64,000 bases of DNA from an uncultured Gemmatimonadota bacterium (GTDB lineage Bacteria > JAAXHH01). Shown here piece by piece: positions 8,367 to 60,437 of this stretch. A program made the position numbers and the translations under genes. Below the pieces are notes generated by a model. It saw only the letters and a list, made by a program, of their open reading frames with translations, searched no databases and was not told the DNA's origin. The stretch lies in NCBI GenBank assembly GCA_951812955.1, contig OX638340.1, forward strand, positions 832,001 to 896,000, given 5' to 3'. How positions within the stretch are numbered: position 1 is the stretch's first letter; each line of letters begins with the position of its first letter.

Positions 8367-9410
8367 TTAACCGATGTACACTTTTTCACCAGTCCGCGCG
8401 CTCTCGTACATCGCATCGAGCAGCTGCATGAACCTGTACGCGTCATCCGCGTTGACGTCGGGAGCTACCCGACCCGCTATAGCTCGTGCGAAATGTTCCA
8501 CCTCGTGGTAGAAGGGCAGTCCCTCGCCCGGTGGTTCTGTATACGGCACGTCGGATTCGTCCTCGATCTGCTGCGCGTTAAAAACGCCATCCTCCCACTG
8601 CCATAGTTGACCGTGCGAATAGGCGCCTTCGCTCCCGTATACCTCCACCACCGTGGGCGTATCGCAGTGCACCCAGCGGGAGCAGTCTATCTGGATCGTC
8701 TTGCCTCCATCGAAACCGGCAAGACCTGAAAAATAGTCTTCGGCCGGACCTTCCGGTCCGTCGTAAAGCGCCTCTACGACGTGCTTGGCGGCAAAGGCCC
8801 ATTTGGGATCCGGACAGCCCATCCACCACCAGGCCAGGTCCAACTCGTGCGATGCATGCTGCCCCAGTGCGCCGCCCTTCTGACCATACACGTGGGTCCA
8901 GCCTTCGGGACTGTCCAAAGGCGCCCTGTGGTTGAATTTCAGGAAGATGCGGGCGTGGTACGGCTCACCGATGCGGCCGCGGCTTAACGCGGTGCGGGTT
9001 CTGCGGTTCACCGGATCGTGACGCATAAAGTAGCAGAACTGCAGCGTCACGCCGGCGCGCTCGGCCGCTTCTTCGATGTCCAGGACCTGCTCGGCGCGGG
9101 TTGCGTGCGGTTTCTGCACGAGTACGTGCTTACCGGCCTCGATGGCATCGAAGACCATGGGATAGCGGGCGGGCGGATTCACGGCCAGGAGCACGGCATC
9201 CACTCCTTTATCGACCAGCAGATCCTGGTAGGGACCGTATCTATTGGGCACTCCCTCCTCACGGGCCACGCGGTTTCGACGTTCCTCACCCAGGTCGCCG
9301 ATCGCGACGACATCCAGGAGTGCGCTAGCCTGGGCCGATCGCACGGCGGCATGGCCGGCCCATCCGCAGCCCACGACACCGAGCCGAATCGCGTTCTCCT
9401 TCTGCATCAC
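8367..9410 (-). CDS. Gfo/Idh/MocA-family oxidoreductase
   Basis: N-terminal Rossmann fold (IRLGVVGCGWAGHAAV...) and the EKP-type motif region (KHVLVQKPHA). Confidence 0.8.
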   Translation of the reverse strand: MMQKENAIRLGVVGCGWAGHAAVRSAQASALLDVVAIGDLGEERRNRVAREEGVPNRYGPYQDLLVDKGVDAVLLAVNPPARYPMVFDAIEAGKHVLVQKPHATRAEQVLDIEEAAERAGVTLQFCYFMRHDPVNRRTRTALSRGRIGEPYHARIFLKFNHRAPLDSPEGWTHVYGQKGGALGQHASHELDLAWWWMGCPDPKWAFAAKHVVEALYDGPEGPAEDYFSGLAGFDGGKTIQIDCSRWVHCDTPTVVEVYGSEGAYSHGQLWQWEDGVFNAQQIEDESDVPYTEPPGEGLPFYHEVEHFARAIAGRVAPDVNADDAYRFMQLLDAMYESARTGEKVYIG

Positions 9411-9567
9411 TGCCTGTTTTCCTGGTTTGGGGATGTCGTTAACTCGATGAACTTCCCGGCATCGCCGGCATCATCTCCACCTGTCTGGATTATGACCTGA
9501 CAGGTATGGAAATCGGTCTGCCGGATCGCCGGGACAGTTGAATGCGCGATTCAGCCGCAGGAAGGAA

Positions 9568-22400: not shown

Positions 22401-24284
22401 ATGGACCCCGCCATGACTCCGAAAACGCCTTCTACCAGTCTACAGGTTGGTACCGTGTCCGATCACGATTATGCCCCCTCGAAGAACTGGCCCTACCCGG
22501 TCACAAAGTCACAAATCATGGACGAGGTCCGGAAACTGTCATTGGCCATCCAGGACGGTCGTGCCGAAGCCATGGCAGAAAAAAACAGGTATGGAAGTTC
22601 AGCTGATCCGTCATCGTTCTCCCCGGACGACGCACGGAACGTACTCGCCCTAAGTTACGGATTCCCGGGCTGGACACAGGTAGAACGGTACTTCGATACG
22701 GTAGACAGGTATTCGCGCGACCCTAACATGGAACCCACGCCAACCAATTCGGATGACGCGTCTTCGCTCGCCGATGTTTTCCTTCGTCTTGCCTGCCTGA
22801 CGCAGGGCGTCCAGGACCACCCGTCTCGGTGGGCAAGGGCCAGGGCCTTGCTCGATGACCATCCGAAACTATCCCGGTTGAATATCTACACCGCTTCGGT
22901 CGCCGGCGACGTTTCAGCCGTGGGCGAATACCTGGAAGCGGATTCTGAACTGGCTACGACGCCTGGCGGCCCCCATGACTGGGAGCCCCTGCTATACCTG
23001 GCGTATTCCCGTCTGGACCGCGAGACCTCGGGGCATTCCGCCGTCGAAATCACCCGGTTGCTCCTCTCCCATGGCGCCGACCCGAACGCGGGCTACCTCT
23101 GGGCGGGTTTCCCCTGCCCTTACACCGTACTGACCGGAGTCTTCGGCGAGGGTGAGAACGGTCCGGTCAGGTGTCCTCCACACCCTAACTGCTGCAAACT
23201 GGCGGAAATCCTGTTGGAGGCCGGGGCCGATCCCAACGACGCCCAGACACTATACAACAGGATGTTCAGCCGCGACGACGAACACCTTCGGTTCCTGTTC
23301 ACGCACGGCCTGGGGAAGGACCGGGACCGGCCCTGGCACCGGTTGTTGGGCGAACAATCCCGCGGCTGGGTGAGCAGTCCCGCGAGCATACTGGCCTACC
23401 AGCTTCAGTGGGCAGCCCGATGGAACTACCTGGATCGCGTCAAGTTACTGGTCGAAAACGGCGCCGACGTAAACAGGCCCTCCAACCGGCCCGATGCGCG
23501 ATCACCTTACCGCGAGGCCGTGTTCCACGGAAACGAGTCCATCGCCGAATACCTGGCAATCTGCGGCGCGGAGACGTTTGTGCTGGACGACCTGGACCGT
23601 TTCGCCGGCGCGTGCATCAGTGGAGACCTGGGTCGTGCCCGCGCGATGCTCGCACGCGATCCGTCACTCGTTGAAAAACTTGGAGAACGCGGGAACACGC
23701 TCATGGAGAACGCCGTTGGGTCGGACAACCGGGACGCGGTCCGGCTGATGTTCGAACTGGGCTTCGACTTGAAGAAATCCGGTATGCAAGAAGCGGCCCG
23801 TTATGGCCACCTGGACATGATCAAACTGCTGGTCGAGCTTGGGACTGATGTTTCCCAAACGGACGCGGGCCACGAGATCTGTGCCCTGGGCTATGCCAGC
23901 CATTACCAGCAAAATAACGTGATCGACTACCTGGCGCAGTTCGCCGGGATACACAGAGCAGTGCAGTCGGACTTGTTGGAACGGGTCGGGGAACTGCTTG
24001 ACGAAGATCCCGGTCTCGTACACGCTCGAGATACCAGCGGCAACTCGCCGCTGCACTGTCTCGACGTGGACAACAGGATGGAAGATACGGAGGAGATACT
24101 CCGTCTGCTCGTAACGCACGGAGCCGATGTCAATGCCAGAAACAAGGAAGGCCTGACACCGCTCGACAGGCTGGAGCTTCTTTCCGGTTTCAGTCGAAGA
24201 GACGGTTTGGCGGAACTGTTGCGCGGGTACGGGGCCGTGGAGTCAGACGCCGCCGACGGGTCAAAGAACCGTCCGGAGTCGTGA
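22401..24284 (+). CDS. Ankyrin-repeat protein (627 aa) with an N-terminal module
   Basis: Many ANK repeats. The N-terminus carries ALSYGFPGWTQVERYF. Confidence 0.8.
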   Translation: MDPAMTPKTPSTSLQVGTVSDHDYAPSKNWPYPVTKSQIMDEVRKLSLAIQDGRAEAMAEKNRYGSSADPSSFSPDDARNVLALSYGFPGWTQVERYFDTVDRYSRDPNMEPTPTNSDDASSLADVFLRLACLTQGVQDHPSRWARARALLDDHPKLSRLNIYTASVAGDVSAVGEYLEADSELATTPGGPHDWEPLLYLAYSRLDRETSGHSAVEITRLLLSHGADPNAGYLWAGFPCPYTVLTGVFGEGENGPVRCPPHPNCCKLAEILLEAGADPNDAQTLYNRMFSRDDEHLRFLFTHGLGKDRDRPWHRLLGEQSRGWVSSPASILAYQLQWAARWNYLDRVKLLVENGADVNRPSNRPDARSPYREAVFHGNESIAEYLAICGAETFVLDDLDRFAGACISGDLGRARAMLARDPSLVEKLGERGNTLMENAVGSDNRDAVRLMFELGFDLKKSGMQEAARYGHLDMIKLLVELGTDVSQTDAGHEICALGYASHYQQNNVIDYLAQFAGIHRAVQSDLLERVGELLDEDPGLVHARDTSGNSPLHCLDVDNRMEDTEEILRLLVTHGADVNARNKEGLTPLDRLELLSGFSRRDGLAELLRGYGAVESDAADGSKNRPES

Positions 24285-26353: not shown

Positions 26354-27874
26354 ATGCCGTCCCTGCCTTCACAACCCGATATACGCCATCTCAGTCTGCA
26401 GGCGAAAACGCTTCTGAAGTCCGCGCGCAGCGGCGAAGAGCATGCCGTAGACAGAATCCGCTCGGCCATCGGAGTGCGACGCGAACGCCTCGTGCTGTCG
26501 GACGCCTACCATGCCATCGCCAGGGAATACGGGTTCAGGTCCTGGCCCCATCTCAAGATACACATCGAAATCGTCGCTAGAAACCTGGACGAACAGCGCG
26601 AGATGTTTCTGTCATCGGCATGGCTGTGGGGCGATCGGCAGAGAGCCGAGGCCCTGCTCGCTACCGCTCCGGAACTCTCCAAGGGAAACATCCATGCCGC
26701 CTGCGCCGCCGGGGACGTGGATGCCGTCGCAGGTATCCTGGAGGCCGACCCCGCTTCGGCCACGACGAAGGGCGGTCCGAGAGACTGGCCCCCGATACTC
26801 TACGCGACGTGGTCCTGCTTTCTTTCCGAACGTGCCGACGCCATGGTCCGAGTCCTGGAATTGCTGCTGCGGCACGGCGCCGACCCGGACAGCTACTGGG
26901 TGAACGAGTCGGACTGGAAAGAGTCGGCCCTTTACGGATGCGTTGAAAACAACTGCGTACCGGCGGCCAGGGTGCTGGTGGACGCGGGCGCCAACCCAAA
27001 TGACAACGAATCCCTCTACCACGCCTGTGAGAAATTCAACCTGGAACTGCTCGACACGGTCGCGGCGAACGGACTGGACGCGGAAGGCGTCTCCTATTGC
27101 ATCAAGCATGCCATGGACATGACATGGACCGAGGCCGTCATGTGGTTTCTCGACCAGGGCGCCGATCCCAACGCCATCCATCCCGCCGACCGGGAGACCT
27201 CCCTTCACTGGGCGGTAAAGAGAAACTGCACAGCAGACGTGATCAGTGCGCTCCTGGACGCCGGAGCGGACCCCAACGCACGCACGTCGACCGGGAAGAG
27301 TACGGCCCTCGGGATCGTCGGCTGGACGCCCCTCGATTTCGCCTTCCGGCTCGGTCGCGGGGAGGTCGCCGCGCTCCTACAGCGGAATAGCGCCGAACCG
27401 TCCCCCATGTCCGAATACGACCGCTTCGTAGTCGCGTGCGCCAATACGGACCTCGATATCGTGGAGCAACTGAAAGACCGTCACCTGGCCAACTTGACTG
27501 ACGACGACCGGACCCTCATCAGCCACGCGGCCCAGATGGACAACTGGGCGGCGGTCCGTCTCATGGCGGACCTGGGCTGGCCGGTAGACGCCCGGGGCTG
27601 GATGGATGCCACGCCCCTCTACTGGGCCCTGTGCAAAGGCCATGCCGAAATGGTCGATTTCCTGCTTCGGCGGGGTGTCTCCATCGAACCCATCGGCGGA
27701 TACTTCCAGGATCCGGTCCATGCCGTGATTCATTGCCAGTGGAATGGGGACAAAAGCGGGTACCCGGTCGCGCTCGGTCGACTGCTCGACCATGGCCTCG
27801 GCGTTCCGGAAGGACGCTATCCATGCGGCAATGTCGCGATGGACGAGGTGCTGTCGCGCTACGTCGAAAACTGA
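26354..27874 (+). CDS. Ankyrin-repeat protein (506 aa) with an N-terminal module
   Basis: ANK repeats (ETSLHWAVKRNCTADVISALLDAGADPNA). The N-terminus carries AIAREYGFRSWPHLKIHIE. Confidence 0.8.
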   Translation: MPSLPSQPDIRHLSLQAKTLLKSARSGEEHAVDRIRSAIGVRRERLVLSDAYHAIAREYGFRSWPHLKIHIEIVARNLDEQREMFLSSAWLWGDRQRAEALLATAPELSKGNIHAACAAGDVDAVAGILEADPASATTKGGPRDWPPILYATWSCFLSERADAMVRVLELLLRHGADPDSYWVNESDWKESALYGCVENNCVPAARVLVDAGANPNDNESLYHACEKFNLELLDTVAANGLDAEGVSYCIKHAMDMTWTEAVMWFLDQGADPNAIHPADRETSLHWAVKRNCTADVISALLDAGADPNARTSTGKSTALGIVGWTPLDFAFRLGRGEVAALLQRNSAEPSPMSEYDRFVVACANTDLDIVEQLKDRHLANLTDDDRTLISHAAQMDNWAAVRLMADLGWPVDARGWMDATPLYWALCKGHAEMVDFLLRRGVSIEPIGGYFQDPVHAVIHCQWNGDKSGYPVALGRLLDHGLGVPEGRYPCGNVAMDEVLSRYVEN

Positions 27875-28006
27875 GGCTGAATTCGGAGGAAGAGGACTGA
27901 GGCGGAGTCCGGCGGAACGCCGAACGGCCTGCTCGGTTTCCCGCTCGGAAGCATGGCTACACTATCCTGAATCATGGCTTCGATAACGGGAAAGGCCACG
28001 GCCACC

Positions 28007-28035
28007 TTGACAAACAAAGGGCGGGCCGGTATATA
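28007..28035 (+). promoter_or_regulatory. Near-consensus sigma70 promoter (TTGACA-17-TATATA) upstream of yggX
   Basis: TTGACA at 28007-28012, a 17-nt spacer, and TATATA at 28030-28035. It lies about 75 nt upstream of the yggX ATG. Confidence 0.5.
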
Positions 28036-28110
28036 GCCTGTGTTTCATCGCACCCGATGCCAACCGGCATATGATCAACCAAGATGACGCCCGTTTCGAG
28101 GAGGCACTGC

Positions 28111-28386
28111 ATGGCCCGCATGGTCCAATGCGTAAAGCTCAACAAAGAACTCGAAGGTCTCGAATTCGTACCATTCCCCAACGAGCTTGGCCAGCGCATC
28201 TACGACAACATTTCCAAAGAGGCCTGGCAGATGTGGATCCACCATTCGGTCATGGTCATCAACGAGTACCGCCTGAATCTCGCCACGACCGAAAGCCAGG
28301 AAATCTACGACCGGCACCTGGAGGAGTTCCTTTTCGGTGAAGGCGCCGAAATGCCGCCGGGATACCGCCCTCCCCAGACGAAATGA
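28111..28386 (+). CDS. yggX: Fe(2+)-trafficking / oxidative damage protection protein YggX
   Basis: MVQCVKLNKELEGLEFVPFPNELGQRIYDNISKEAWQMWIHHSVMVINEYRLNL... aligns well with E. coli YggX. GAGGAGG lies 7 nt upstream of the ATG. Confidence 0.85.
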   Translation: MARMVQCVKLNKELEGLEFVPFPNELGQRIYDNISKEAWQMWIHHSVMVINEYRLNLATTESQEIYDRHLEEFLFGEGAEMPPGYRPPQTK

Positions 28387-28419
28387 CCCACATCGCCTGC
28401 ACTGCCACATGGTTCGATC

Positions 28420-29868
28420 ATGAAACGTGATGATGGCATCCTCCTCATTTCCTGCTATGAACTGGGTCATCAGCCCTTCAGCCTCGCTTCCCCCGCGGCC
28501 CGCCTGAAGTCCGAAGGATACGAAGTCTCCGTAGTCGATGCCGCGATCGAGCCGATCCCGGAAGATGCCGTCCAGCGTGCCGGGTTTATCGGCATCTCGG
28601 TTCCCATGCATACGGCCATGCGGGTGGGCATGGACCTGTCCGGCCGAATCCGGAACCTCAATCCGGACGCGCACCAGTGCTACTACGGACTCTACGCCAC
28701 GCTGAACGCAGACTATCTCCTGTCCCACGGCGCCGATTCGGTAATCGGAGGCGAATTCGAACAACCGCTCTGCGACCTTGTGGATAGATTGTGCGCGGGT
28801 GATGCCGCCATGCCGGACCCCGATCCGTCCACCGCACCATCCACCGCTCCATATCTTTCACGCCAGACCTGGCTGGTCCCGGACCGAGGGAGTCTGCCCG
28901 CTTTGAAACGGTACGCCCAGCTGGACACCGGAACGGAGACGCTGCCCGCCGGTTATACCGAGACCACGAGGGGTTGCCTCCATACCTGTCTTCATTGCCC
29001 GATCACGCCGGTGTACAACGGCCGGTTCTTTGCCGTACCTGCCAACGTCGTGCTCGCCGACATAGCCCAGCAGGTGCGCATGGGCGCCCGCCACATCACC
29101 TTCGGGGACCCGGATTTCCTGAACGGTCCGACCCATGTCCTTCGCATTCTGCGCAGGCTGAAGGAAACCCATCCCGGAATCACCTTCGATTTCACCACCA
29201 AGATCGAACATATCCTCCGGCACGCGGGGTTTTTCCCCGAGGCGAAGGCGCTCGGCGCGCTTTTCGTCGTATCGGCCGTCGAATCGGTCAGCGATCTCGT
29301 GCTCATGCGCCTGGAGAAAGGTCACACTCGGGAGGACATCGTCAGGGCGCTCGCTATCCTCCGAGACGCGGACCTGCCCATGCGGCCTTCGCTGGTGGCC
29401 TTCACACCCTGGACGACGCTGGACGACTATCTGGAATTGCTGGATTTCGTCGAAGTTCACGACCTGGTCGATCACATCGACCCGGTGCAGTACACCATAC
29501 GACTGCTCGTGCCGCCCGGTTCGGCCCTGCTGGAAACAGAGGATGCCAGGACCTGGATCGGCAAGCTGGATGAAGCCGGGTTTACTTACGAGTGGAGCCA
29601 TTCCGATGCTAGAATGGACCACCTGCATCGGCGGGTATCCCGTCTTGTGGAAGGAGCCGACGCTTCGGGGGAGGAGCGGGACAACCGGAGCATCTTTCAC
29701 CGGATCCGGCGCCTCGCCGCGGAGACGGCCGGAGTCGAAGCGGTCGAAGGACCCACGGAACGGCCCTTTGAAGTCCTGTCGCCGAAACGGCGACGGATCC
29801 CCAGGCTGACCGAGGCCTGGTTCTGCTGAGCGGAGCCCACGGCGAGCCGGAAAGGCTCGTTCATTTGA
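28420..29868 (+). CDS. B12-binding-domain radical SAM protein, probably a selenoprotein: an in-frame UGA (29827-29829) read as Sec gives a C-terminal ...AWF-C-U-A-E-P-TASRKGSFI
   Basis: N-terminal B12-binding-like domain, then a radical SAM CLHTCLHC (CX3CX2C) motif. The ORF caller stops at the TGA at 29827, but the same frame continues Ala-Glu-Pro plus 9 codons to a TGA at 29866-68. A hairpin follows about 19 nt downstream of the UGA. Confidence 0.6.
29842..29860 (+). promoter_or_regulatory. Candidate bacterial SECIS hairpin
   Basis: GCGAGCC-GGAAA-GGCUCGU forms a 7-bp stem (one G.U pair) with a GGAAA apical loop. The loop starts 19 nt after the UGA, within the usual bacterial SECIS spacing, and contains GG. 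Confidence 0.4.
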
Positions 29869-29884
29869 TCTTTACGGGTGAAAA

Positions 29885-31084
29885 TCAGGAAGCATAACCG
29901 TCCTGGACGGGGCCGCAGTGCTGCGACCGGGCGGGCGCCCGATACTGCACGCGGTGATCGGGCGTCTCGATGCGTATGCCGCCCTGCTGTTTCGAAGTAA
30001 GACAATGATCGAGGATGCCGCATACGGTCAACGTCCGTTCAACCGGGATCGGTGATACGCCGGTCTCGAACATCTCGTCGATCCTCGACACAAGGCAGGC
30101 CGAGTAGGTAACCGGAGGAGTGGGCGGCAGGAAGAACTGGGTCGAACAGGGCTCAGGTTCGTCTTTGAGGCGGGCGGCGAAACAATAGTCGCCGATCGCG
30201 CCATTGAGCATGAGCAGCGTGGTCTGAAGACCGTCCATGTGTTCGATGAAGTAGGCGGCCGGCTCAGTGGCGAGCCGGTGCAATTCGCCCGTCCCCAGCA
30301 GGTCCTGCGTGCGGCCATCCTGCTCGGGCAGTCCCTTCGGACTGTCACAGCGCGACAGTGCCGATTCCAGCAATTCCTTCGAGTAACGTCCCTGGTCGCC
30401 GGCCTCCCACACCGCGTCCCCCACGATCATCTGGACAGACCTGACGCCCGTCTCGCCACCCCTGCGACGCTCGATCATGCACTGCATGGCCTCGAGTGCG
30501 TGATAGTCCATGGCGTCCGAACCGCCGACCCCTACCATCAGCGCTTCGTCGATATCGCATTCCAGCGGCAGTTCGAGGTCGGGCAGCCGCCATGTGACCG
30601 GAAGGCTCGAACCCGCGAGCACTGGAAAACCGAGCCGCTTGGAATCGGCCACCATTTCCAGGCCCCTTGCAAAGCTGTAGGAGAGATTCTTGTCGTTGTA
30701 GACCGGCACTGAGCGGCCGTCCTGCTCGAAAACTTCGACGCAGGCCTTGAACATCTCGTAGCGCGGGTAGAGTTTCTGTCCCTTCTCGTTGTCCGAATAG
30801 TCGCCGTGTTCGCAGATGATCAGGATCCCGTCCACCGCCAGGGAATCCCCGCCGCACCGCAGGGCTTCGGCTATGGTGGGATAGACCTCGAAACCGAACT
30901 CGCGGGCGCGGTCTGTGCTCTGGTCGCCTTCGGGACGCTGATCCACGTAAAGCGACACAACCTCGACGTCCGGCCTGCGCCAGCGGCCCGAATTCGGATA
31001 GCCGACGAGGAACCGGTCCGCGAAATGCTGCGAGTGGGAGAGATAGGTGTAGATTGAACTGATGACGGCGAGCCGCTTCGGCAT
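29885..31084 (-). CDS. Uncharacterised protein, second of a tandem paralog pair (possibly a distant Rossmann/MocA-like fold)
   Basis: At 399 aa it shares long conserved blocks with the upstream gene (SLYVDQ, EHGDY, NEKGQKLYPRYEMF, AGSSLPVTWR). No canonical GxGxxG. Confidence 0.5.
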   Translation of the reverse strand: MPKRLAVISSIYTYLSHSQHFADRFLVGYPNSGRWRRPDVEVVSLYVDQRPEGDQSTDRAREFGFEVYPTIAEALRCGGDSLAVDGILIICEHGDYSDNEKGQKLYPRYEMFKACVEVFEQDGRSVPVYNDKNLSYSFARGLEMVADSKRLGFPVLAGSSLPVTWRLPDLELPLECDIDEALMVGVGGSDAMDYHALEAMQCMIERRRGGETGVRSVQMIVGDAVWEAGDQGRYSKELLESALSRCDSPKGLPEQDGRTQDLLGTGELHRLATEPAAYFIEHMDGLQTTLLMLNGAIGDYCFAARLKDEPEPCSTQFFLPPTPPVTYSACLVSRIDEMFETGVSPIPVERTLTVCGILDHCLTSKQQGGIRIETPDHRVQYRAPARSQHCGPVQDGYAS

Positions 31085-31087
31085 GGT

Positions 31088-32341
31088 TCAATATCTCCAG
31101 AAGGTGGAGTTTTCAGGCGCGGGGTATTCGACGTCGAGATGGGGCGTTTCCAGCCTTACCTGTCCTTCGTGCAGGCTGTCGACGCCGGCCGCGGTCAGTC
31201 CCGATGTCAGGAGGGTCCGCTCGACGGGATAGGCGGCCTCGCCGGACAGGAACATCTGTTCCACGTTGTTGACCTGCGGCGAGAAGAAGTTGGCCAGCGA
31301 GGTGCGCGCAGGCGGCATAGGCAGGTACATCTGGGTCGACAGCGGTTCGCTGCGCCCCGACAGGCGAGCCGCGAAGTTGAAGTCTTCGACCAGCCCGCTA
31401 AACAGGATCATGGTGCACTTGACCCCGTCGCGGTGCTCGTAAGTGTAGGCGACGGGATCCTCCACCATCCGCTTCATCTCGTTGATGGTCGGGAAGACGT
31501 TGTTGAACCCGTCGCGGGATGGTTTCAGCGTGTGACTGCGACACAGTGCCGCTTCGAAGAGTTCGCGGGACCACACTTCGTCGTGGAAAGCCTCCCAGAA
31601 TGCCTCGAGCCGACGGGCGTGGAGCCAGGAGACGCCCGACTCGCCGCCCTTGCGCCGTTCGACCATGCATTGCAGGGTCTCCAGGCCGTGGAAATCGTAA
31701 CTGTCGACCCCGCCGTAGCATACGCACACGGCTTCTTCGACCTCGGCGTGAAGCGGCATGTCGACTGAGGGCGTCCGCCACGTGACCGGCAGGCTGGATC
31801 CGGCCATGAAGGCAAAACCCAGGCGCTGCGCGGTATCGTACATTTCCTTGGCCCAGTCCCAGTTCCACGACAGGTGCTTGTCGTTGAATATGGGAACGGT
31901 ACGGCCGCTTCGCTCATAGACTTCCACGATCTCGCGGAACAGTTCGTAGCGTGGATAAAGCCGTTGTCCCTTCTCGTTGGTTTGATACTCGCCGTGTTCT
32001 CCCACCAGGAGGACTCCGTCCACCTGCAGCGAATCGCCGCCGAGGGTCAGGGCATCGGCGACCGTGGGATAGATCTTCATCTGAGGGAAACGGGCGGCGC
32101 GGTCCCGGCTCAGATCGTTCTCGCCCACCTGGTCCACGTATAGGGAGACCAGGTCCATGGGCGGATGGTGGTGCCGGCCGCCCCAGCCATATCCCTCAAG
32201 GAACCGGTCCACGATATGCTGAGTGTGGGCGTACGGATGGTAGACCGTCGTAATCGCGGAAATCTTGGGTCTGTTGGACATGGTATCGGAACGCTTCGGT
32301 TGCTCCATGAAATAGTTGCGAGACCGGGACAAAGCCGGCAA
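31088..32341 (-). CDS. Uncharacterised protein, first of a tandem paralog pair
   Basis: At 417 aa it is about 45% identical to the 29885..31084 product. A 3-bp gap separates them, so they are co-transcribed. Confidence 0.5.
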   Translation of the reverse strand: MPALSRSRNYFMEQPKRSDTMSNRPKISAITTVYHPYAHTQHIVDRFLEGYGWGGRHHHPPMDLVSLYVDQVGENDLSRDRAARFPQMKIYPTVADALTLGGDSLQVDGVLLVGEHGEYQTNEKGQRLYPRYELFREIVEVYERSGRTVPIFNDKHLSWNWDWAKEMYDTAQRLGFAFMAGSSLPVTWRTPSVDMPLHAEVEEAVCVCYGGVDSYDFHGLETLQCMVERRKGGESGVSWLHARRLEAFWEAFHDEVWSRELFEAALCRSHTLKPSRDGFNNVFPTINEMKRMVEDPVAYTYEHRDGVKCTMILFSGLVEDFNFAARLSGRSEPLSTQMYLPMPPARTSLANFFSPQVNNVEQMFLSGEAAYPVERTLLTSGLTAAGVDSLHEGQVRLETPHLDVEYPAPENSTFWRY

Positions 32342-32350
32342 GGGGCATGC

Positions 32351-32445
32351 GAGGCCGGACCTGGCTAAGCAAGGCCGGGCTGGACTAGGCTAAGCGAGTC
32401 CGGGCCAGGCCAGGCGGAATAGACCGTGCCTGGCCTTGATTTGAC
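32351..32445. repeat. Degenerate tandem repeat of about 24 bp (x3-4) with a CCGGNCCTGGC core
   Basis: The units are ggccggacctggctaagcaa, ggccgggctggactaggctaagcga and gtccgggccaggccaggcgg. Intergenic. Confidence 0.5.
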
Positions 32446-32450
32446 GAGCG

Positions 32451-33395
32451 CTATACACGCTCCCGTGGACCGTCTTCGGCATTCCGGTCGTGTTTGATTA
32501 CGGACATGGCCGACGCGATGATCGAACTGATATCGCTGAGATTGGAGGGAATGATCAGGCTGTTTCCCTGCTTGGCCAGATTGCCGAAGGTTTCGATGTA
32601 CTGCTCGGCTACCCGCAGCTGGACAGCCTGGTCGCCACCATCCGTCTTGATCGCGCTGGCGATTGCCTTGACGCCCTCGGCCGTGGCGTTGGCCACGGTG
32701 AGGATGGCCTGGCCTTCGCCTTCGGCCTCGTTGATTTGCTGCTGCTTGTTTGCCTCGGACTCCTTGATGACCTTCTGCTTCTCACCTTCGGCCTGGTTGA
32801 TATTGGAGTCACGCATCCCTTCGGAATTCAGGATAGCCGCCCGCTTCTCCCGTTCCGCGCGCATCTGTTTTTCCATGGCTTCCAGGACGTCACGAGGTGG
32901 ATTGATGTTCTTGATCTCGTATCGCAGGACCTTTACGCCCCAGGGATCGGAAGCCTTGTCCAGTTCACTCACGACGGCGAAATTGATGGCGGACCGTTCT
33001 TCGAAGGTCTTGTCCAGGTCGATCTTGCCGACTTCGCTTCTCAGGGTCGTCTGCGCAAGTTGGATTATGGCCATTTCATAGTCGGAAATGCCATAAGAAG
33101 CCCGTTCCGCGTCCAGAATCTGCATGTACAGTACTCCGTCCACGCCCACCTGGACGTTGTCCCGCGTGATACAAAGCTGTTCCGGGATGTCGATCGACTG
33201 TTCCTTCAACGTGTGCCGGTATGCCACCCGATCCACGAAGGGCATCAGGATATAGAATCCGGCGTTGAGCGTCCGGCTGTACTTCCCCAGTCTTTCGATC
33301 ACGCGGGCTTCCTGCTGCGGCACGACGATGACCAGCTTTCTCAAAAACAATATCGCCGCGACTGCGACGACTACGGTAACCAGTAGACTGTCCAT
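32451..33395 (-). CDS. SPFH/band-7 (stomatin/slipin-like) protein
   Basis: N-terminal TM helix, an SPFH core (...IVVPQQEARVIERLGKY...) and a Glu/Lys/Gln-rich coiled-coil tail. Confidence 0.8.
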   Translation of the reverse strand: MDSLLVTVVVAVAAILFLRKLVIVVPQQEARVIERLGKYSRTLNAGFYILMPFVDRVAYRHTLKEQSIDIPEQLCITRDNVQVGVDGVLYMQILDAERASYGISDYEMAIIQLAQTTLRSEVGKIDLDKTFEERSAINFAVVSELDKASDPWGVKVLRYEIKNINPPRDVLEAMEKQMRAEREKRAAILNSEGMRDSNINQAEGEKQKVIKESEANKQQQINEAEGEGQAILTVANATAEGVKAIASAIKTDGGDQAVQLRVAEQYIETFGNLAKQGNSLIIPSNLSDISSIIASAMSVIKHDRNAEDGPRERV

Positions 33396-33468
33396 TAGAT
33401 GAATCCTTCCGGCGCGTAGAGGGATGGACGGTGGCAGGTTTCGACCGCCGACGGCATCCGGGTCGCGT

Positions 33469-33900
33469 TCACGCGCCCCTTACCCAGAGTGAAACACCTT
33501 CTATGCGTTCGACCATGCAGGTCTGTCCCTGCTCGATTTGGGAATCTCCCCGATTTACTGCGTTCCAACTCGAACCCCGCACCTCCACCTTTCCCGTCCC
33601 ATGGGCCGGAATGTCCTCCATGGCCGTTCCGGACTCGCCCTCCAGGGTGTGTATCTGCTCGTTGGATTGATCCAGATTCAAGCGCGAGGCCAGCGCACGG
33701 CGGAACAAGACGAGAGATACGATGGAGAATACGGAAAAAAGCAGGAACTGGATCCACGTAGCATCCACCAGGCCCGCCCACGCCAGCACGCCTACCACGA
33801 GCGAGGCGACGCCGAAGAACAACAGGTAGAAGGCGCCCGGCGTAGCCATCTCGGCCAGACAGAGCAACACGCCTCCGACGATCCAGATCCACCAGTCCAT
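33469..33900 (-). CDS. NfeD-family membrane protein (partner of the SPFH protein)
   Basis: Three TM helices plus a C-terminal OB-like soluble domain, immediately upstream of the SPFH gene. Confidence 0.65.
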   Translation of the reverse strand: MDWWIWIVGGVLLCLAEMATPGAFYLLFFGVASLVVGVLAWAGLVDATWIQFLLFSVFSIVSLVLFRRALASRLNLDQSNEQIHTLEGESGTAMEDIPAHGTGKVEVRGSSWNAVNRGDSQIEQGQTCMVERIEGVSLWVRGA

Positions 33901-33973
33901 TCAATCTCCTTGGATTCGGGCGAACGCGCCGGCAGATGACGGCAAAAACCGTCACGAGTACAGCGGCACGCGC

Positions 33974-35338
33974 TTAAACGTCGAGCAACAGTTCGGCGGG
34001 TACCTCGATCAGGGATTTGATCCTGCCCAGGAACTGCACGGCTTCCCTTCCGTCAATGATCCGGTGGTCGTAGGTCAGTGCCGCGTACATCATGGGCCGG
34101 ATCACGATCTCGCCGTCGACGGCAATGGGCCGGTCGTCGATTCGGTGCAGACCCAGAATCCCCACCTGGGGCGGGTTCAGGATAGGCGTGCTCAGCATGG
34201 ATCCGAAAACCCCGCCGTTCGTGATCGTAAAGGTCCCTCCCCTCAGGTCCTCCAAAGAAAGCTTGCCGTCCCCGGCCCTGGCCGCGTATTCGCGTATACC
34301 GCCTTCGATCTCGGCAAAAGTCATCCGATCCGCGTCCCGGAGGACGGGTACCACGAGCCCGTCTTCGGCACCGACCGCGATGCCGATGTCATAATAATGC
34401 TTCCTGACAATCGTATCCTCACGGATCTCGGCATTCAACTCTGGAAATTCCCTTAGCGCGCCGATCACGGCTTTTACGAAGAAGGACATGAATCCCAGCC
34501 GGACGCCGTGCCGCTTCTCGAAGGACTCCCGGTTTTTGCGTCGGATCGTCATCACCGCGCTCATGTCGATCTCGTTGAAGGTCGTCAGCATCGCGGCGGT
34601 CTGCTGCGCTTCCACGAGCCGACTGGCGATGGTGCGCCGCCGCCGGGACATGGGTATAACCTCCTCACGATGGTCACGGGATGCTTCGGAAGTATCGGCG
34701 GAAACGGCCGCGGCCGCCGCCTGCGCGGGAGCATCGGTCGCTGCGGAGTCACGGGATCGACTGGCTTGCCGCTCCGTCCTGCCAGAACCTCGTTCATCGG
34801 GCTCCCGCCCTGTTTCATCCGAAACGGCTTTCTCCTTCCTCGCTGCCACGGCCCGCTCTACGTCCTCCCTGCAGATCCGTCCTCCCATCCCGGTCCCTTC
34901 CAACCCGGCCAGGGAGATGCCCGCTTCGTCCGCCATACGGCGCGCCACGGGCGTTGCGCGATCGTCCGCAACCTCGTCTGCCTGGTTCGCCGCAGCCTGC
35001 TCGCCCGCAGCCGCAGCCTGCTCGCCCGCAGCCACAGCCTGCTCGCCCGCAGCCACAGCCTGCTCGCCCGCCGCCGCAGCCTGCTCGCCCGCCTTGACAC
35101 CGCCGTCTTCCAGCACACCGAGCAGATCGCCAATTTTTACATCCTCTCCCGCCGTGCGTTCGATGCGGGCCAGGACGCCGCTGTCGTTGGCGTTCACTTC
35201 GAGGGTAACTTTTTCGGTCTCCAACTCCAGCAGGGCCTCACCGGTCGTGACCGTATCGCCTTCCACTTTGAACCACTGGACGACCGTTGCTTCGACAATG
35301 GATTCACCGAGTTGCGGTACGGTGATGTCGATTGCCAT
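33974..35338 (-). CDS. sucB: 2-oxoglutarate dehydrogenase E2 (dihydrolipoyllysine-residue succinyltransferase)
   Basis: Lipoyl domain (ETEKVTLEV), an Ala/Glu/Gln repeat linker, an E3-binding domain and a catalytic DHRIIDG motif. Directly downstream of sucA. Confidence 0.85.
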
Positions 35339-51065: not shown

Positions 51066-51127
51066 ACGGTATCAGCACGTAACCGGCAAAGATCCTTTCA
51101 TCATCCAGCATACCAAAGGGGAAACAA

Positions 51128-52159
51128 ATGGAAACCATCCGGGTAGGCGTGGTCGGCGCAGGCACCAATACCGTGGCCATGCATATACCGAAACTCCAGG
51201 CGATCGAAGGGGTGGAGATCGTCAGCGTCTGCAACCGCAGTCGCGCATCCTCGGAACGCGTGGCCGCGCAGTTCGGCATACCGACCGTCTACGAGACGTG
51301 GACCGAACTGATCGAGGCCGACGATACCGATGCCATTGTCGTCGGCACCTGGCCCTACCTCCACTGCGCCACCACCTTGGCGGCCCTGGCAAACGGCAAG
51401 CACATCCTGACCGAGGCGCGCATGGCCATGAATCTCGAAGAGGCCCAGCTCATGCACGACGCCGCGCAGAGCAACCCGGATCTCGTCGCCCAGATCGTGC
51501 CTTCCCCCATGACGCTCTGGGCCGACAAGACCATCCAGCGCCTGATCGCGGAAGGCTACGTGGGCGACATACTCAGCGTGGAACTCCGCTCCTCCGGCAG
51601 CGACTTCATCGACCGCGACGGCCCCATGCACTGGCGGCAGAACGTCGATTTCAGCGGAATGAACATCATGACCATGGGCATCTGGTACGAGGCCATGCGA
51701 CGCTGGGTAGGGGATCCGCTGTCGGTGTATGCCCAGGGCAAGACCTTCACGAAAATGCGCCGTGATGCCGAAACGGGCGTAATGCGCGCCGTTAAGGTGC
51801 CGGAGCATATAGACATCGTGATGGACTTGATTTGCGGCGCGTCGGCCTATGTCAAGATTTCAACGGTCCAGGGACTCGCCGACGAAAGCGACGCCACGAT
51901 CTATGGCAGCGAAGGAACGATCCGCATGGGCGACGGGAAAATCTACGGGGCGCAACGTGGAGACGACGCCCTGGCCGAGATTGAAATACGTCCCGAAGAC
52001 CACGCGGAATGGCGTGTGGAAGAGGAATTCGTCAATGCCATCCGCGGCCTCGAAAAGGTTTCCCACACGCCTTTCGACGTAGGCGTCAAGTACATGGAAT
52101 TCACCGAGGCAGTGACCCGCAGCATGGCGGAAGGCAAGGCCATAGCCCTGCCGCTCTAG
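51128..52159 (+). CDS. Gfo/Idh/MocA-family oxidoreductase
   Basis: IRVGVVGAGTNTVAMHIPKL... Rossmann N-terminus. Confidence 0.85.
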   Translation: METIRVGVVGAGTNTVAMHIPKLQAIEGVEIVSVCNRSRASSERVAAQFGIPTVYETWTELIEADDTDAIVVGTWPYLHCATTLAALANGKHILTEARMAMNLEEAQLMHDAAQSNPDLVAQIVPSPMTLWADKTIQRLIAEGYVGDILSVELRSSGSDFIDRDGPMHWRQNVDFSGMNIMTMGIWYEAMRRWVGDPLSVYAQGKTFTKMRRDAETGVMRAVKVPEHIDIVMDLICGASAYVKISTVQGLADESDATIYGSEGTIRMGDGKIYGAQRGDDALAEIEIRPEDHAEWRVEEEFVNAIRGLEKVSHTPFDVGVKYMEFTEAVTRSMAEGKAIALPL

Positions 52160-59374: not shown

Positions 59375-60349
59375 TTACAGGGACACGGACCGTCCCGTCC
59401 TCGATGATTCGTAGATGGCGAGGATCAGCGCGAGAGACTTCTTGGCCTCCTCGCCCGTTATGCGGGGCGTACCGCCGTGGCGGACCAGCCGGATCATATC
59501 CTCGATCACGTTTGCGGGCCCGTCGTAGGAAAAGGGATCGTCGATGGATTCGTCCGGTATGTGCCAGGTAGCCAGCTTGTTGCCGGCAGTGATGACCAAT
59601 CCATCGGTGCCATGCAGTTCCACGCCGGCCGGGATGGTAACCGGACAGGTCGTCGTCCCAAGGATGGTTCCGACGGCTCCGCTCTTAAAGCGGATCATGG
59701 CCATGCCGAGGTCCTCGGACTCGATGTCGTGGTTGAACACCCCGATCTGTCCCTGGACGCTTTCGATCGGCCCCATGTACCAGACCAGCAGATCGATCTG
59801 GTGGACGGACTGGTTGATCAGCGAGCCGCCGCCGTCCAGTTTCCAGGTCCCGTGCCAGCCCTTGTAGTAATCGTCGTTCCGGAACCACTTGAGCCGGACC
59901 TCGCCCAGGATCATTCTGCCGAGACGGCCCTCGTCCACGGCCCGCTTGACCCGGACGTTATCGGCCATGTACCGCGCTTCGAAGTCTATGGAGAGGATTA
60001 CGCCGGCGTCCCGGCAGGCCTCGATCATACGGTCCGCACGTTCCAGGTTCACATCGATCGGCTTCGTGGTAATCACGTGCTTGCCGGCCTGCGCGGCCTC
60101 CAGGGCGAAATCGGCGTGCGTACCGCTCGGGGTCATGACGTTGATGACGTCGATGTCGTCGCGATCGAGCAGGCGCCTGTAGTCCTCGTACCAGTCGACG
60201 CCATAGTCTGAAGCCGCCTTCCGACCTCTTTCTTCGTCCAGTTCGGCCACCGCCACGAGCCTGGCGCCGTCCGTCTCATGAATGCAACGGGCGCGCACGT
60301 TGCCCATACCAAGTCCAATCACGCCGAACCCGACGGTATCGGTGCTCAA
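59375..60349 (-). CDS. Gfo/Idh/MocA-family oxidoreductase
   Basis: GFGVIGLGMGNVRA... Rossmann N-terminus and an EKP-equivalent region. Confidence 0.85.
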   Translation of the reverse strand: MSTDTVGFGVIGLGMGNVRARCIHETDGARLVAVAELDEERGRKAASDYGVDWYEDYRRLLDRDDIDVINVMTPSGTHADFALEAAQAGKHVITTKPIDVNLERADRMIEACRDAGVILSIDFEARYMADNVRVKRAVDEGRLGRMILGEVRLKWFRNDDYYKGWHGTWKLDGGGSLINQSVHQIDLLVWYMGPIESVQGQIGVFNHDIESEDLGMAMIRFKSGAVGTILGTTTCPVTIPAGVELHGTDGLVITAGNKLATWHIPDESIDDPFSYDGPANVIEDMIRLVRHGGTPRITGEEAKKSLALILAIYESSRTGRSVSL

Positions 60350-60437
60350 GTAGATCTCCTCATCATTTTATTGGGAAATTCAGGTTCGATTCGGACCGGA
60401 ATCAGGCCCACCGGACCGTCGTGCGATGCAACGCCAC

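Follow-up and report, generated by a model that had tools for sequence, protein, structure and literature searches.

Two adjacent genes of roughly 400 codons, which resemble no named family and converge on a gene for a selenoprotein of the radical S-adenosylmethionine (rSAM) class, raise the question of what they encode and whether they work together with that neighbor. The genes, which we call A and B, lie on the reverse strand of a 64,000-nt stretch of DNA from an uncultured Gemmatimonadota bacterium (contig OX638340.1, positions 832,001 to 896,000), hereafter the window. On balance, we favor with modest confidence a reading in which the pair constitutes a two-subunit enzyme of a divergent Gfo/Idh/MocA branch, performing sugar-type redox chemistry with non-canonical cofactor binding. 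The pair is functionally unrelated to the adjacent CUAEP-tail rSAM gene, to which it has no detectable link. The coordinates of the pair are as follows:

29885..31084, reverse strand: gene A, the downstream paralog, an open reading frame (ORF) of 399 amino acids
31085..31087, reverse strand: the 3-nt spacer ACC between the B stop and the A ATG, read through as a linker in natural fusions
31088..32281, reverse strand: gene B, the upstream paralog, 397 amino acids from the ATG at 32281; its longest ORF (TTG start) reaches 32341

The TGA stop of B is followed by ACC and then by the ATG of A, and the two genes share a reading frame. BLASTP aligns their products with 176 of 389 residues identical (45%; E = 8e-125), far beyond chance. 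An earlier reading of the bare sequence (the original prediction) had described two co-directional genes 3 bp apart with about 45% identity and four shared blocks, all of which is borne out by the ORFs, the spacer, and the alignment: SLYVDQ, VDG(I/V)L(I/L)(I/V)(C/G)EHG(D/E)Y, NEKGQ(K/R)LYPRYE(M/L)F, and AGSSLPVTWR are present in both paralogs. The span that it assigned to the pair, 29885-32341, does hold both ORFs, but its outer limit is the end of the longest TTG-initiated frame rather than the start of B. Syntenic relatives use an ATG equivalent to 32281 (MSNRPKIS..., 397 amino acids), 9 nt past a Band7 gene, and we placed the start of B there because the alignment to these relatives begins B at that point.

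Fold, superfamily, and spread of the family

The pair had been said to fit no named family, and conventional searches agree: neither A nor B matches any Pfam-A or NCBIfam model at E <= 1 (the curated Gfo/Idh/MocA models PF01408, PF02894, and PF22725 included) or any PDB sequence at E <= 10 (phmmer), and every public name is "hypothetical protein". Each protein consists of an N-terminal Rossmann-like domain and a C-terminal alpha/beta domain with an open sheet, which is the two-domain layout of the Gfo/Idh/MocA superfamily. A profile of 71 diverse family members, the same set used for the residue census below, matches a profile of canonical Gfo genes at a probability of 94.4% and E 8.9e-8 over 144 N-terminal columns (hhalign); the canonical profile was built from 12 genes from metagenome loci, and a regular-expression hunt for such genes in the first 80 loci had given almost none. 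When compared with PDB sequences by hmmsearch, the family profile matches RgNanOx at E = 0.006, setting 'VPVFnDKhLS' against 'VNVFCEKPIA'. An hhalign comparison with a single canonical sequence is weak (E 0.077) and is superseded by the profile-profile result, and PF01408 touches just 1 of the 71 diverse members (E 0.031). By fold and remote homology, A and B almost certainly belong to the superfamily; they fail both its curated family models and its defining dinucleotide fingerprint. What the original prediction had glimpsed as a vague Gfo/Idh/MocA layout without GxGxxG is thus substantiated by the hhalign match and by the absence of that motif from all 71 members. This placement gives annotators a handle on the family, and it indicates that the scaffold can persist without its hallmark GxGxxG.

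The distance from characterized relatives is considerable. Identity to Gfo/Idh/MocA enzymes such as GenD2 (6nor), Bacillus subtilis inositol dehydrogenase (3mz0), DgpA1 (9m3d), WlbA (3q2k), RgNanOx (6z3c), and GFOR (1h6a) is just 10-15%. Compared with canonical members, A and B lack PF01408 and PF02894 matches, have GxGxxG wholly replaced and EKP changed to (N)DK, carry a conserved 14-residue insertion past beta4, and appear to form a paralog heteromer or fusion where canonical enzymes are homo-oligomeric. The fold also includes a transcriptional regulator, Gal80 (3bts); unlike it, the A/B family has a densely conserved polar pocket together with enzyme-type fusions and neighborhoods, and nothing suggests a regulatory role of that kind. 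The window holds just two copies of the A/B family. Three further ORFs match the canonical Gfo profile strongly (E 1e-36 to 1e-46; 8370-9470 on the reverse strand, 51083-52156 on the forward strand, and 59378-60367 on the reverse strand), all at least 19 kb from the pair, and the organism therefore also has ordinary superfamily members.

The family comprises thousands of members, yet is without a model, a name, or a known function. A word-indexed search gave at least 7,980 significant matches, among which the best 120 are 72-99% identical and every named one is a "hypothetical protein"; cluster look-ups of ten members, distant and fused ones included, returned only the same name. When a family profile was compared exhaustively with 1.84 billion cluster representatives, 3,424 clusters (at 50% identity) scored E <= 1e-3 and 801 scored E <= 1e-30. 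Scanning one genome per species, we collected 80 loci with the pair, distributed by their deposited taxon labels over Poribacteria (30), Latescibacterota (21), Acidobacteriota (13), Chloroflexota (9), Gemmatimonadota (3), Planctomycetota (1), and Handelsmanbacteria (1), with 2 unlabelled. Orthologs from 74 of the loci are 62-93% identical, a level of conservation that extends over at least seven bacterial phyla, with dominant sponge symbionts (Poribacteria, Latescibacterota, Caldilineaceae) among them. A literature search found nothing specific on this family, on glycine-less or heteromeric Gfo/Idh/MocA proteins, or on their Poribacteria/Latescibacteria context.

Paired genes, fusions, and co-evolution

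The two paralogs travel together in a fixed order. B lies upstream of A in 76 of 77 assessable loci, which span Poribacteria, Latescibacterota, Acidobacteriota, Chloroflexota, Gemmatimonadota, Planctomycetota, and Handelsmanbacteria; the exception, L069, has only a partial B-like match by tblastn. The same tblastn comparison places B orthologs at 66-93% identity and A orthologs at 67-93%. The junction between the genes is at most 8 nt or overlapping in about 37 loci, and in 8 loci, all from Caldilineaceae/Chloroflexota, B and A form a single in-frame ORF. Searching with a fusion as query revealed more than 80 clusters of full-length fusions (approximately 800-850 amino acids) down to 54% identity, some of them annotated as Bryobacteraceae or Fuerstiella. 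One natural fusion of 817 residues, modelled from an alignment of 46 fusions, reached a predicted local distance difference score (pLDDT) of 92.2 and a predicted template modelling score (pTM) of 0.92, with all five models at pLDDT 88-92. Since the chain contains two modules, a pTM of 0.92 implies that their mutual packing is confidently fixed in the model. A few loci keep B and A intact but have them separated by another gene or by 0.7-2.2 kb of DNA (L057:7826-10001, a WD40-repeat gene; L023:9243-10001; L024:1410-2153; L022:9115-10001).

Comparison of 74 paired A and B orthologs shows how the two lineages are related. Identity is at least 66% among A orthologs and at least 62% among B orthologs, and A-B identity is 42-55%; identities within each lineage thus exceed those between them, a pattern that points to a single old duplication. 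The distances of A and B co-vary across the 74 pairs (mirror-tree r = 0.86). The positions at which A and B differ in a fixed manner show a modest enrichment (8 of 20) in residues 290-362, the C-terminal sheet region, through which canonical Gfo/Idh/MocA members dimerise.

The conserved adjacency of the genes, their fusion elsewhere, their co-evolution, and the compact assembly predicted for the fusion together make it probable that A and B form an obligate hetero-(pseudo)dimer. We propose that they would jointly make up a single hetero-oligomeric enzyme of the cytoplasm, with one subunit from each gene in a pseudo-symmetric B-A dimer. One ancient duplication would have yielded the two subunits, which would since have been passed on together and, in several lineages, fused. 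Such pairing and fusion of paralogs is unusual for the superfamily, and the natural fusion provides a ready construct for structural and biochemical work.

A remodelled pocket and its possible chemistry

The segments that would line the pocket were mapped in both proteins:

31034..31060, reverse strand: A residues 9-17, SSIYTYLSH, the loop at the place of GxGxxG...H (hhalign column mapping and 71-member census)
32225..32251, reverse strand: B residues 11-19, TTVYHPYAH, the equivalent glycine-less loop (alignment to A and orthologs)
30761..30811, reverse strand: A residues 92-108, EHGDYSDNEKGQKLYPR, the family-specific, near-invariant 14-residue insertion after beta4 (hhalign, census, and orthologs)
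31949..31999, reverse strand: B residues 95-111, EHGEYQTNEKGQRLYPR, the same insertion (alignment to A and orthologs)
30689..30697, reverse strand: A residues 130-132, NDK, the EKP counterpart, with K132 as the conserved lysine (aligned to RgNanOx and to the EKP of the canonical profile)
31877..31885, reverse strand: B residues 133-135, NDK, the EKP counterpart (orthologs)
30491..30526, reverse strand: A residues 187-198, GGSDAMDYHALE, putative catalytic helix (weak alignment of H195 to the catalytic His and of E198 to the following Asp)
31679..31714, reverse strand: B residues 190-201, GGVDSYDFHGLE, putative catalytic helix (orthologs)

In the loop of A, S9, I11, and Y14 stand at the three glycine positions (hhalign), and H17 is kept, matching the post-loop histidine of the canonical profile's first sequence (the L081 gene). 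GxGxxG occurs in 0 of the 71 diverse members, whose loop consensus is (V/T/A/S)-T-x-Y-x3-S-H, often with Val, Ile, or Glu at the second glycine position. The inserted 14-residue segment, HGDYSDNEKGQKLYPR, sits where canonical enzymes have 'tPnxxH'. D131-K132 of A align with the E-K of EKP, so that this motif is present in the modified form (N)D-K, and K132 is found in 65 of 71 family members and in all 74 A and all 74 B orthologs. H195 and E198 fall on the canonical 'H-x-x-D' in a weak alignment only (E 0.077), in which the Asp is displaced (D190 at -5 and D193 at -2); H195 is present in 65 and E198 in 68 of the 71 members, and both are invariant in the 74 A and 74 B orthologs. For comparison, the superfamily employs a Lys/Asp/His triad, and the catalytic residues of BsIDH are D172/H176 (Asp-x3-His) (10.1101/626366). 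Also kept in 74 of 74 orthologs of both lineages, counting those already named, are H17, Q19, H20, Q49, E92, H93, G94, Y96, P107, R108, D131, K132, S159, S160, R166, D190, H195, E198, Q201, E205, R207, E211, R350, and Y381. Because all key residues are kept in both A and B, neither subunit is a degenerate partner.

Each subunit retains a full pocket set: the EKP lysine, His and Glu on the putative catalytic helix, and, where beta2 ends, an acidic residue. The GxGxxG loop, by contrast, has become (S/T)-x-Y-x3-S-H, and the His/Tyr/Arg-rich 14-residue insertion would line the former cofactor crevice. Judged from these motifs, the evidence on NAD(P) appears contradictory: the glycine loop is gone, and the beta2 acidic residue and the EKP lysine are kept.

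The genomic context bears on the substrate. Apart from the pair itself, the lineages share no conserved gene; the most frequent neighbor cluster occurs in 22 of 80 loci, all of them Poribacteria. Lineage-specific neighbors include PhyH dioxygenases, an MBL-fold protein, a glyoxalase, a sulfatase, a PEP-hydrolase-like protein, a MalK-type ATPase and ABC permeases (components of sugar ABC transporters recur), a UxuA/xylose-isomerase-like TIM barrel, an NAD epimerase, a CoA-transferase, a creatininase, and an FAA hydrolase. Directly downstream on the same strand, we find an aldo-keto reductase in about 6 loci, a zinc-dependent alcohol dehydrogenase in 3-4, and a canonical Gfo gene in L022, about 11 loci together. 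DUF1080 is a 3-keto-disaccharide hydrolase; in Bacteroides thetaiotaomicron, it acts alongside Gfo-type dehydrogenases as part of the 3-keto-glycoside pathway (PMC8121099; 10.1101/626366). A DUF1080 gene likewise follows the pair immediately, in the same orientation, in L052 and L056 and lies 7.6 kb off in L047, with none in the other 77 loci or in the window; DUF1080 is also fused to the distant family members P0152 and P0192. Two further distant members, P0202 (1225 amino acids) and P0559 (1221 amino acids), carry the family domain at the C-terminal end of a three-part protein that also contains a PQQ-type glucose/sorbosone dehydrogenase (GSDH) and a cytochrome c. A cytochrome c fusion considered as an independent sign of electron transfer from the family domain was downgraded: P0168 is a fragment of such a GSDH-cytochrome c-family-domain protein, and the cytochrome may therefore serve the PQQ-type dehydrogenase.

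Distant members sit among sulfatases, canonical Gfo genes, DUF1501, SDR, enolase-superfamily, and MFS genes. About 30 of the 71 carry twin-arginine-like (RR-type) signals by a simple regular expression, and 6 match the Pfam model TAT_signal; such signals would fit export in the folded state, which often accompanies a bound cofactor. A and B have no signal peptide, and thus share a compartment and point to a cytoplasmic enzyme here. Taken together, neighbors and fusions suggest, circumstantially, carbohydrate or keto-sugar chemistry, and carbohydrate-type redox chemistry for the pair itself is a tentative assignment that we rate slightly short of an even call. Our best guess is that the enzyme would catalyze the oxidation or reduction, or a closely related change, of a sugar, glycoside, or polyol, akin to the keto-sugar steps of canonical Gfo/Idh/MocA enzymes with the cofactor bound non-canonically, and that the pair would be a self-contained two-gene unit placed in different catabolic islands.

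Two known systems invite comparison. ThuAB, the trehalose/disaccharide 3-dehydrogenase mentioned in PMC8121099, is a sugar dehydrogenase with two subunits, of which ThuB has the Gfo/Idh/MocA fold; ThuA is not a paralog of ThuB, whereas A and B are both Gfo-fold paralogs. The BT2156-BT2160 pathway of B. thetaiotaomicron contains tandem Gfo-fold genes, as A and B are, and the resemblance extends to the DUF1080 genes or domains adjoining the pair in L052 and L056 and fused in P0152 and P0192, as well as to the twin-arginine signals of A/B relatives. However, BT2158 and BT2159 both belong to canonical PF01408, occupy different compartments, and are not reported to associate (10.1101/626366; PMC8121099); in addition, the window lacks DUF1080, and the DUF1080 link is confined to a small minority of pair loci.

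Several observations weigh against the reading of the pair as a two-subunit sugar-type oxidoreductase. None of the 71 diverse members keeps any of the three GxGxxG glycines, and Glu sometimes stands at the second position, which renders canonical NAD(P) binding doubtful; redox chemistry is a proposal. Of the Lys/Asp/His triad, the catalytic Asp has no clean counterpart in the alignment, and the C-terminal domain lies outside the significant hhalign match. There is no universal neighbor, and DUF1080 is near the pair in just 3 of 80 loci and absent from the window. Of 80 metagenome loci with distant members, 74 have a lone gene and 6 a tandem pair, making obligate pairing a trait of the A/B clade only, and the predicted pTM of the fusion is indirect evidence on the A-B interface.

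The strongest alternative, which we nevertheless consider rather unlikely, keeps the same heteromer but supposes that nicotinamide-cofactor binding has been lost in favor of other apparatus, such as a metal or another cofactor held by the conserved His, Glu, Tyr, and Arg residues of the loop and insertion; the reaction would then be non-redox (hydrolase, lyase, or isomerase) or redox without nicotinamide. The loop itself speaks for this possibility, as do the near-invariant polar residues at the C-terminal ends of beta1, beta2, beta4, and beta5 (H17, D/E48-Q49, E92-H93-G94-Y96, and D131-K132, plus the inserted Y106-P107-R108) and the start of the modelled helix alphaA at residue 17, several residues past the second glycine position (residue 11), where that helix begins in canonical enzymes. 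Against it stand the retention of canonical cofactor and hydride-transfer residues (the beta2-end acidic residue, the EKP lysine, and the catalytic-helix His), the indication of sugar redox pathways by fusions and neighbors, and the fact that no tool used found a metal-binding or other cofactor signature. A bolder version, again improbable in our estimation, is that of a new enzyme class on the Gfo/Idh/MocA scaffold, in which the dinucleotide site would be rebuilt through the T-x-Y-x3-S-H loop and the 14-residue insertion and an obligate paralog heterodimer would perform a reaction, for example on keto-sugars or glycosides, carried out by no characterized Gfo/Idh/MocA enzyme. Under this possibility, uncultured bacteria, sponge-associated ones among them, would use the family as a cytoplasmic heterodimer, and planctomycete-like bacteria that degrade glycans would export single-gene forms through the Tat system. 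Should the cofactor site indeed be repurposed, an old fold would have gained a new chemistry, probably serving the catabolism of glycans or keto-sugars.

It is considerably less likely still that A and B are separate enzymes for consecutive or alternative steps that form no complex, as with the periplasmic BT2158 and the cytoplasmic BT2159. The complete putative active-site sets in both paralogs, the precedent of tandem Gfo-type genes acting apart (10.1101/626366; PMC8121099), and the genes inserted between B and A in L022, L023, L024, and L057 count in favor of this idea. In-frame fusions recurring in several phyla, the compactness of the fusion model (pTM 0.92), a strict order with 3-5 nt spacing, co-variation of the subunits (r 0.86), the lack of a signal peptide on either protein (and hence a common compartment), and the fact that no assessable locus is wholly without B (L069 having its partial B-like match) all argue for a single two-subunit enzyme instead.

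The neighboring rSAM gene and the surrounding window

The neighbor of A is a CUAEP/CCAEP-tail rSAM gene (NF040546, 671 bits), preceded by YggX (PF04362) and, as the original prediction had stated, convergent with A. Its 3' end is defined by two features:

29827-29829, forward strand: in-frame UGA of the rSAM gene
29866-29868, forward strand: true stop of the rSAM gene

The gene reads ...EAWFC-UGA-AEPTASRKGSFI-stop, with 16 nt between its true stop and that of A; since the true stop is at 29866-29868, the annotated 469-residue rSAM ORF is 13 codons short (the selenocysteine codon plus 12). A hairpin, GGCGAGCC-GGAAA-GGCTCGTT, lies at 29841-29861 on the forward strand, 12 nt past the UGA, is kept in L001 and L004, and is probably a bacterial selenocysteine insertion sequence (SECIS) element.

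The earlier suggestion that the pair forms a functional module with this rSAM and YggX, for example for substrate synthesis or modification, does not withstand mapping of gene neighborhoods. The rSAM gene adjoins the pair in 2 of the 80 pair loci (L001 and L004), both close relatives of the window. L002 and L003, in which A is 92-93% identical, synteny is kept, and YggX is still adjacent, lack the rSAM gene, the sequences diverging right past the A stop; and in the 76 other pair loci, which cover at least seven phyla, flanks of up to 10 kb contain no rSAM gene. Searching from the rSAM side recovered the homolog locus L163/L164, which is the window's own lineage and fully syntenic with it, and the pair occurs in 0 of 6 independent rSAM loci. 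Moreover, because the pair and the rSAM gene converge, they are not co-transcribed. Although the genes are adjacent and convergent in the window, L001, L004, and L163/L164, all of these represent one closely related, fully syntenic lineage, and a shared module is accordingly extremely improbable. The presence or absence of the rSAM gene is polymorphic between L002:11197-11300 and L003:11197-11300 on the one hand and window positions 29780-29900 on the other, with YggX in place in all.

The YggX-rSAM part of the proposed unit is real, and recurs in several lineages without the pair. In 4 of the 6 independent rSAM loci (L161:8668-11389, L166:8615-11410, L168:8645-11473, and L169:8392-11374), a divergent Formyl_trans_N gene is followed by YggX (Iron_traffic), which abuts or overlaps the rSAM gene; L165 and L167 have other neighbors. 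This trio may be the real functional context of the uncharacterized CUAEP-tail selenoprotein family. A false lead on the partners of this selenoprotein is thereby removed, its conserved neighbors being YggX and a formyltransferase-like gene. The window has no formyltransferase-like gene at that position beside YggX-rSAM. Lateral acquisition of the rSAM gene, considered in view of best matches labelled Gemmatimonadota, was rejected on the basis of the full synteny of L163/L164 with the window, from which it also follows that those labels are noise in bin taxonomy. Metagenome-assembled genomes (MAGs) of this one syntenic lineage carry the label Latescibacterota in some cases and Gemmatimonadota in others (L001 and L002 versus L163/L164), and the taxonomy assigned to these bins is no sound basis for inferring transfer.

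Upstream of B, a stretch of about 160 nt between Band7 and B (32282-32450) is rich in GGCC(A/T)GG and contains a 25-nt tandem direct repeat and several inverted repeats. The corresponding gap is only about 9 nt in L001, L002, and L163, and L004 has a different insertion at that site. The stretch may represent a mobile or repeat element of small size that would part B-A from the NfeD-Band7 genes that B-A abut in relatives. Rfam and promoter scans of positions 27800-34200 gave no credible regulatory RNA or sigma-70 promoter. Further upstream, an ORF at 33974-35338 on the reverse strand encodes a SucB-like E2 component of 2-oxoglutarate dehydrogenase, the linker of which consists in translation of repeated AAGEQA(V/A) units. 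On the other side of the pair, two large ankyrin-repeat proteins are encoded on the forward strand at 22401-24284 and 26354-27874, with Ank Pfam matches on the syntenic genes of L163. Eukaryote-like proteins such as these are typical of sponge symbionts, and several names of related MAGs (Plut, IRC4, RHO) resemble abbreviations of sponge hosts.

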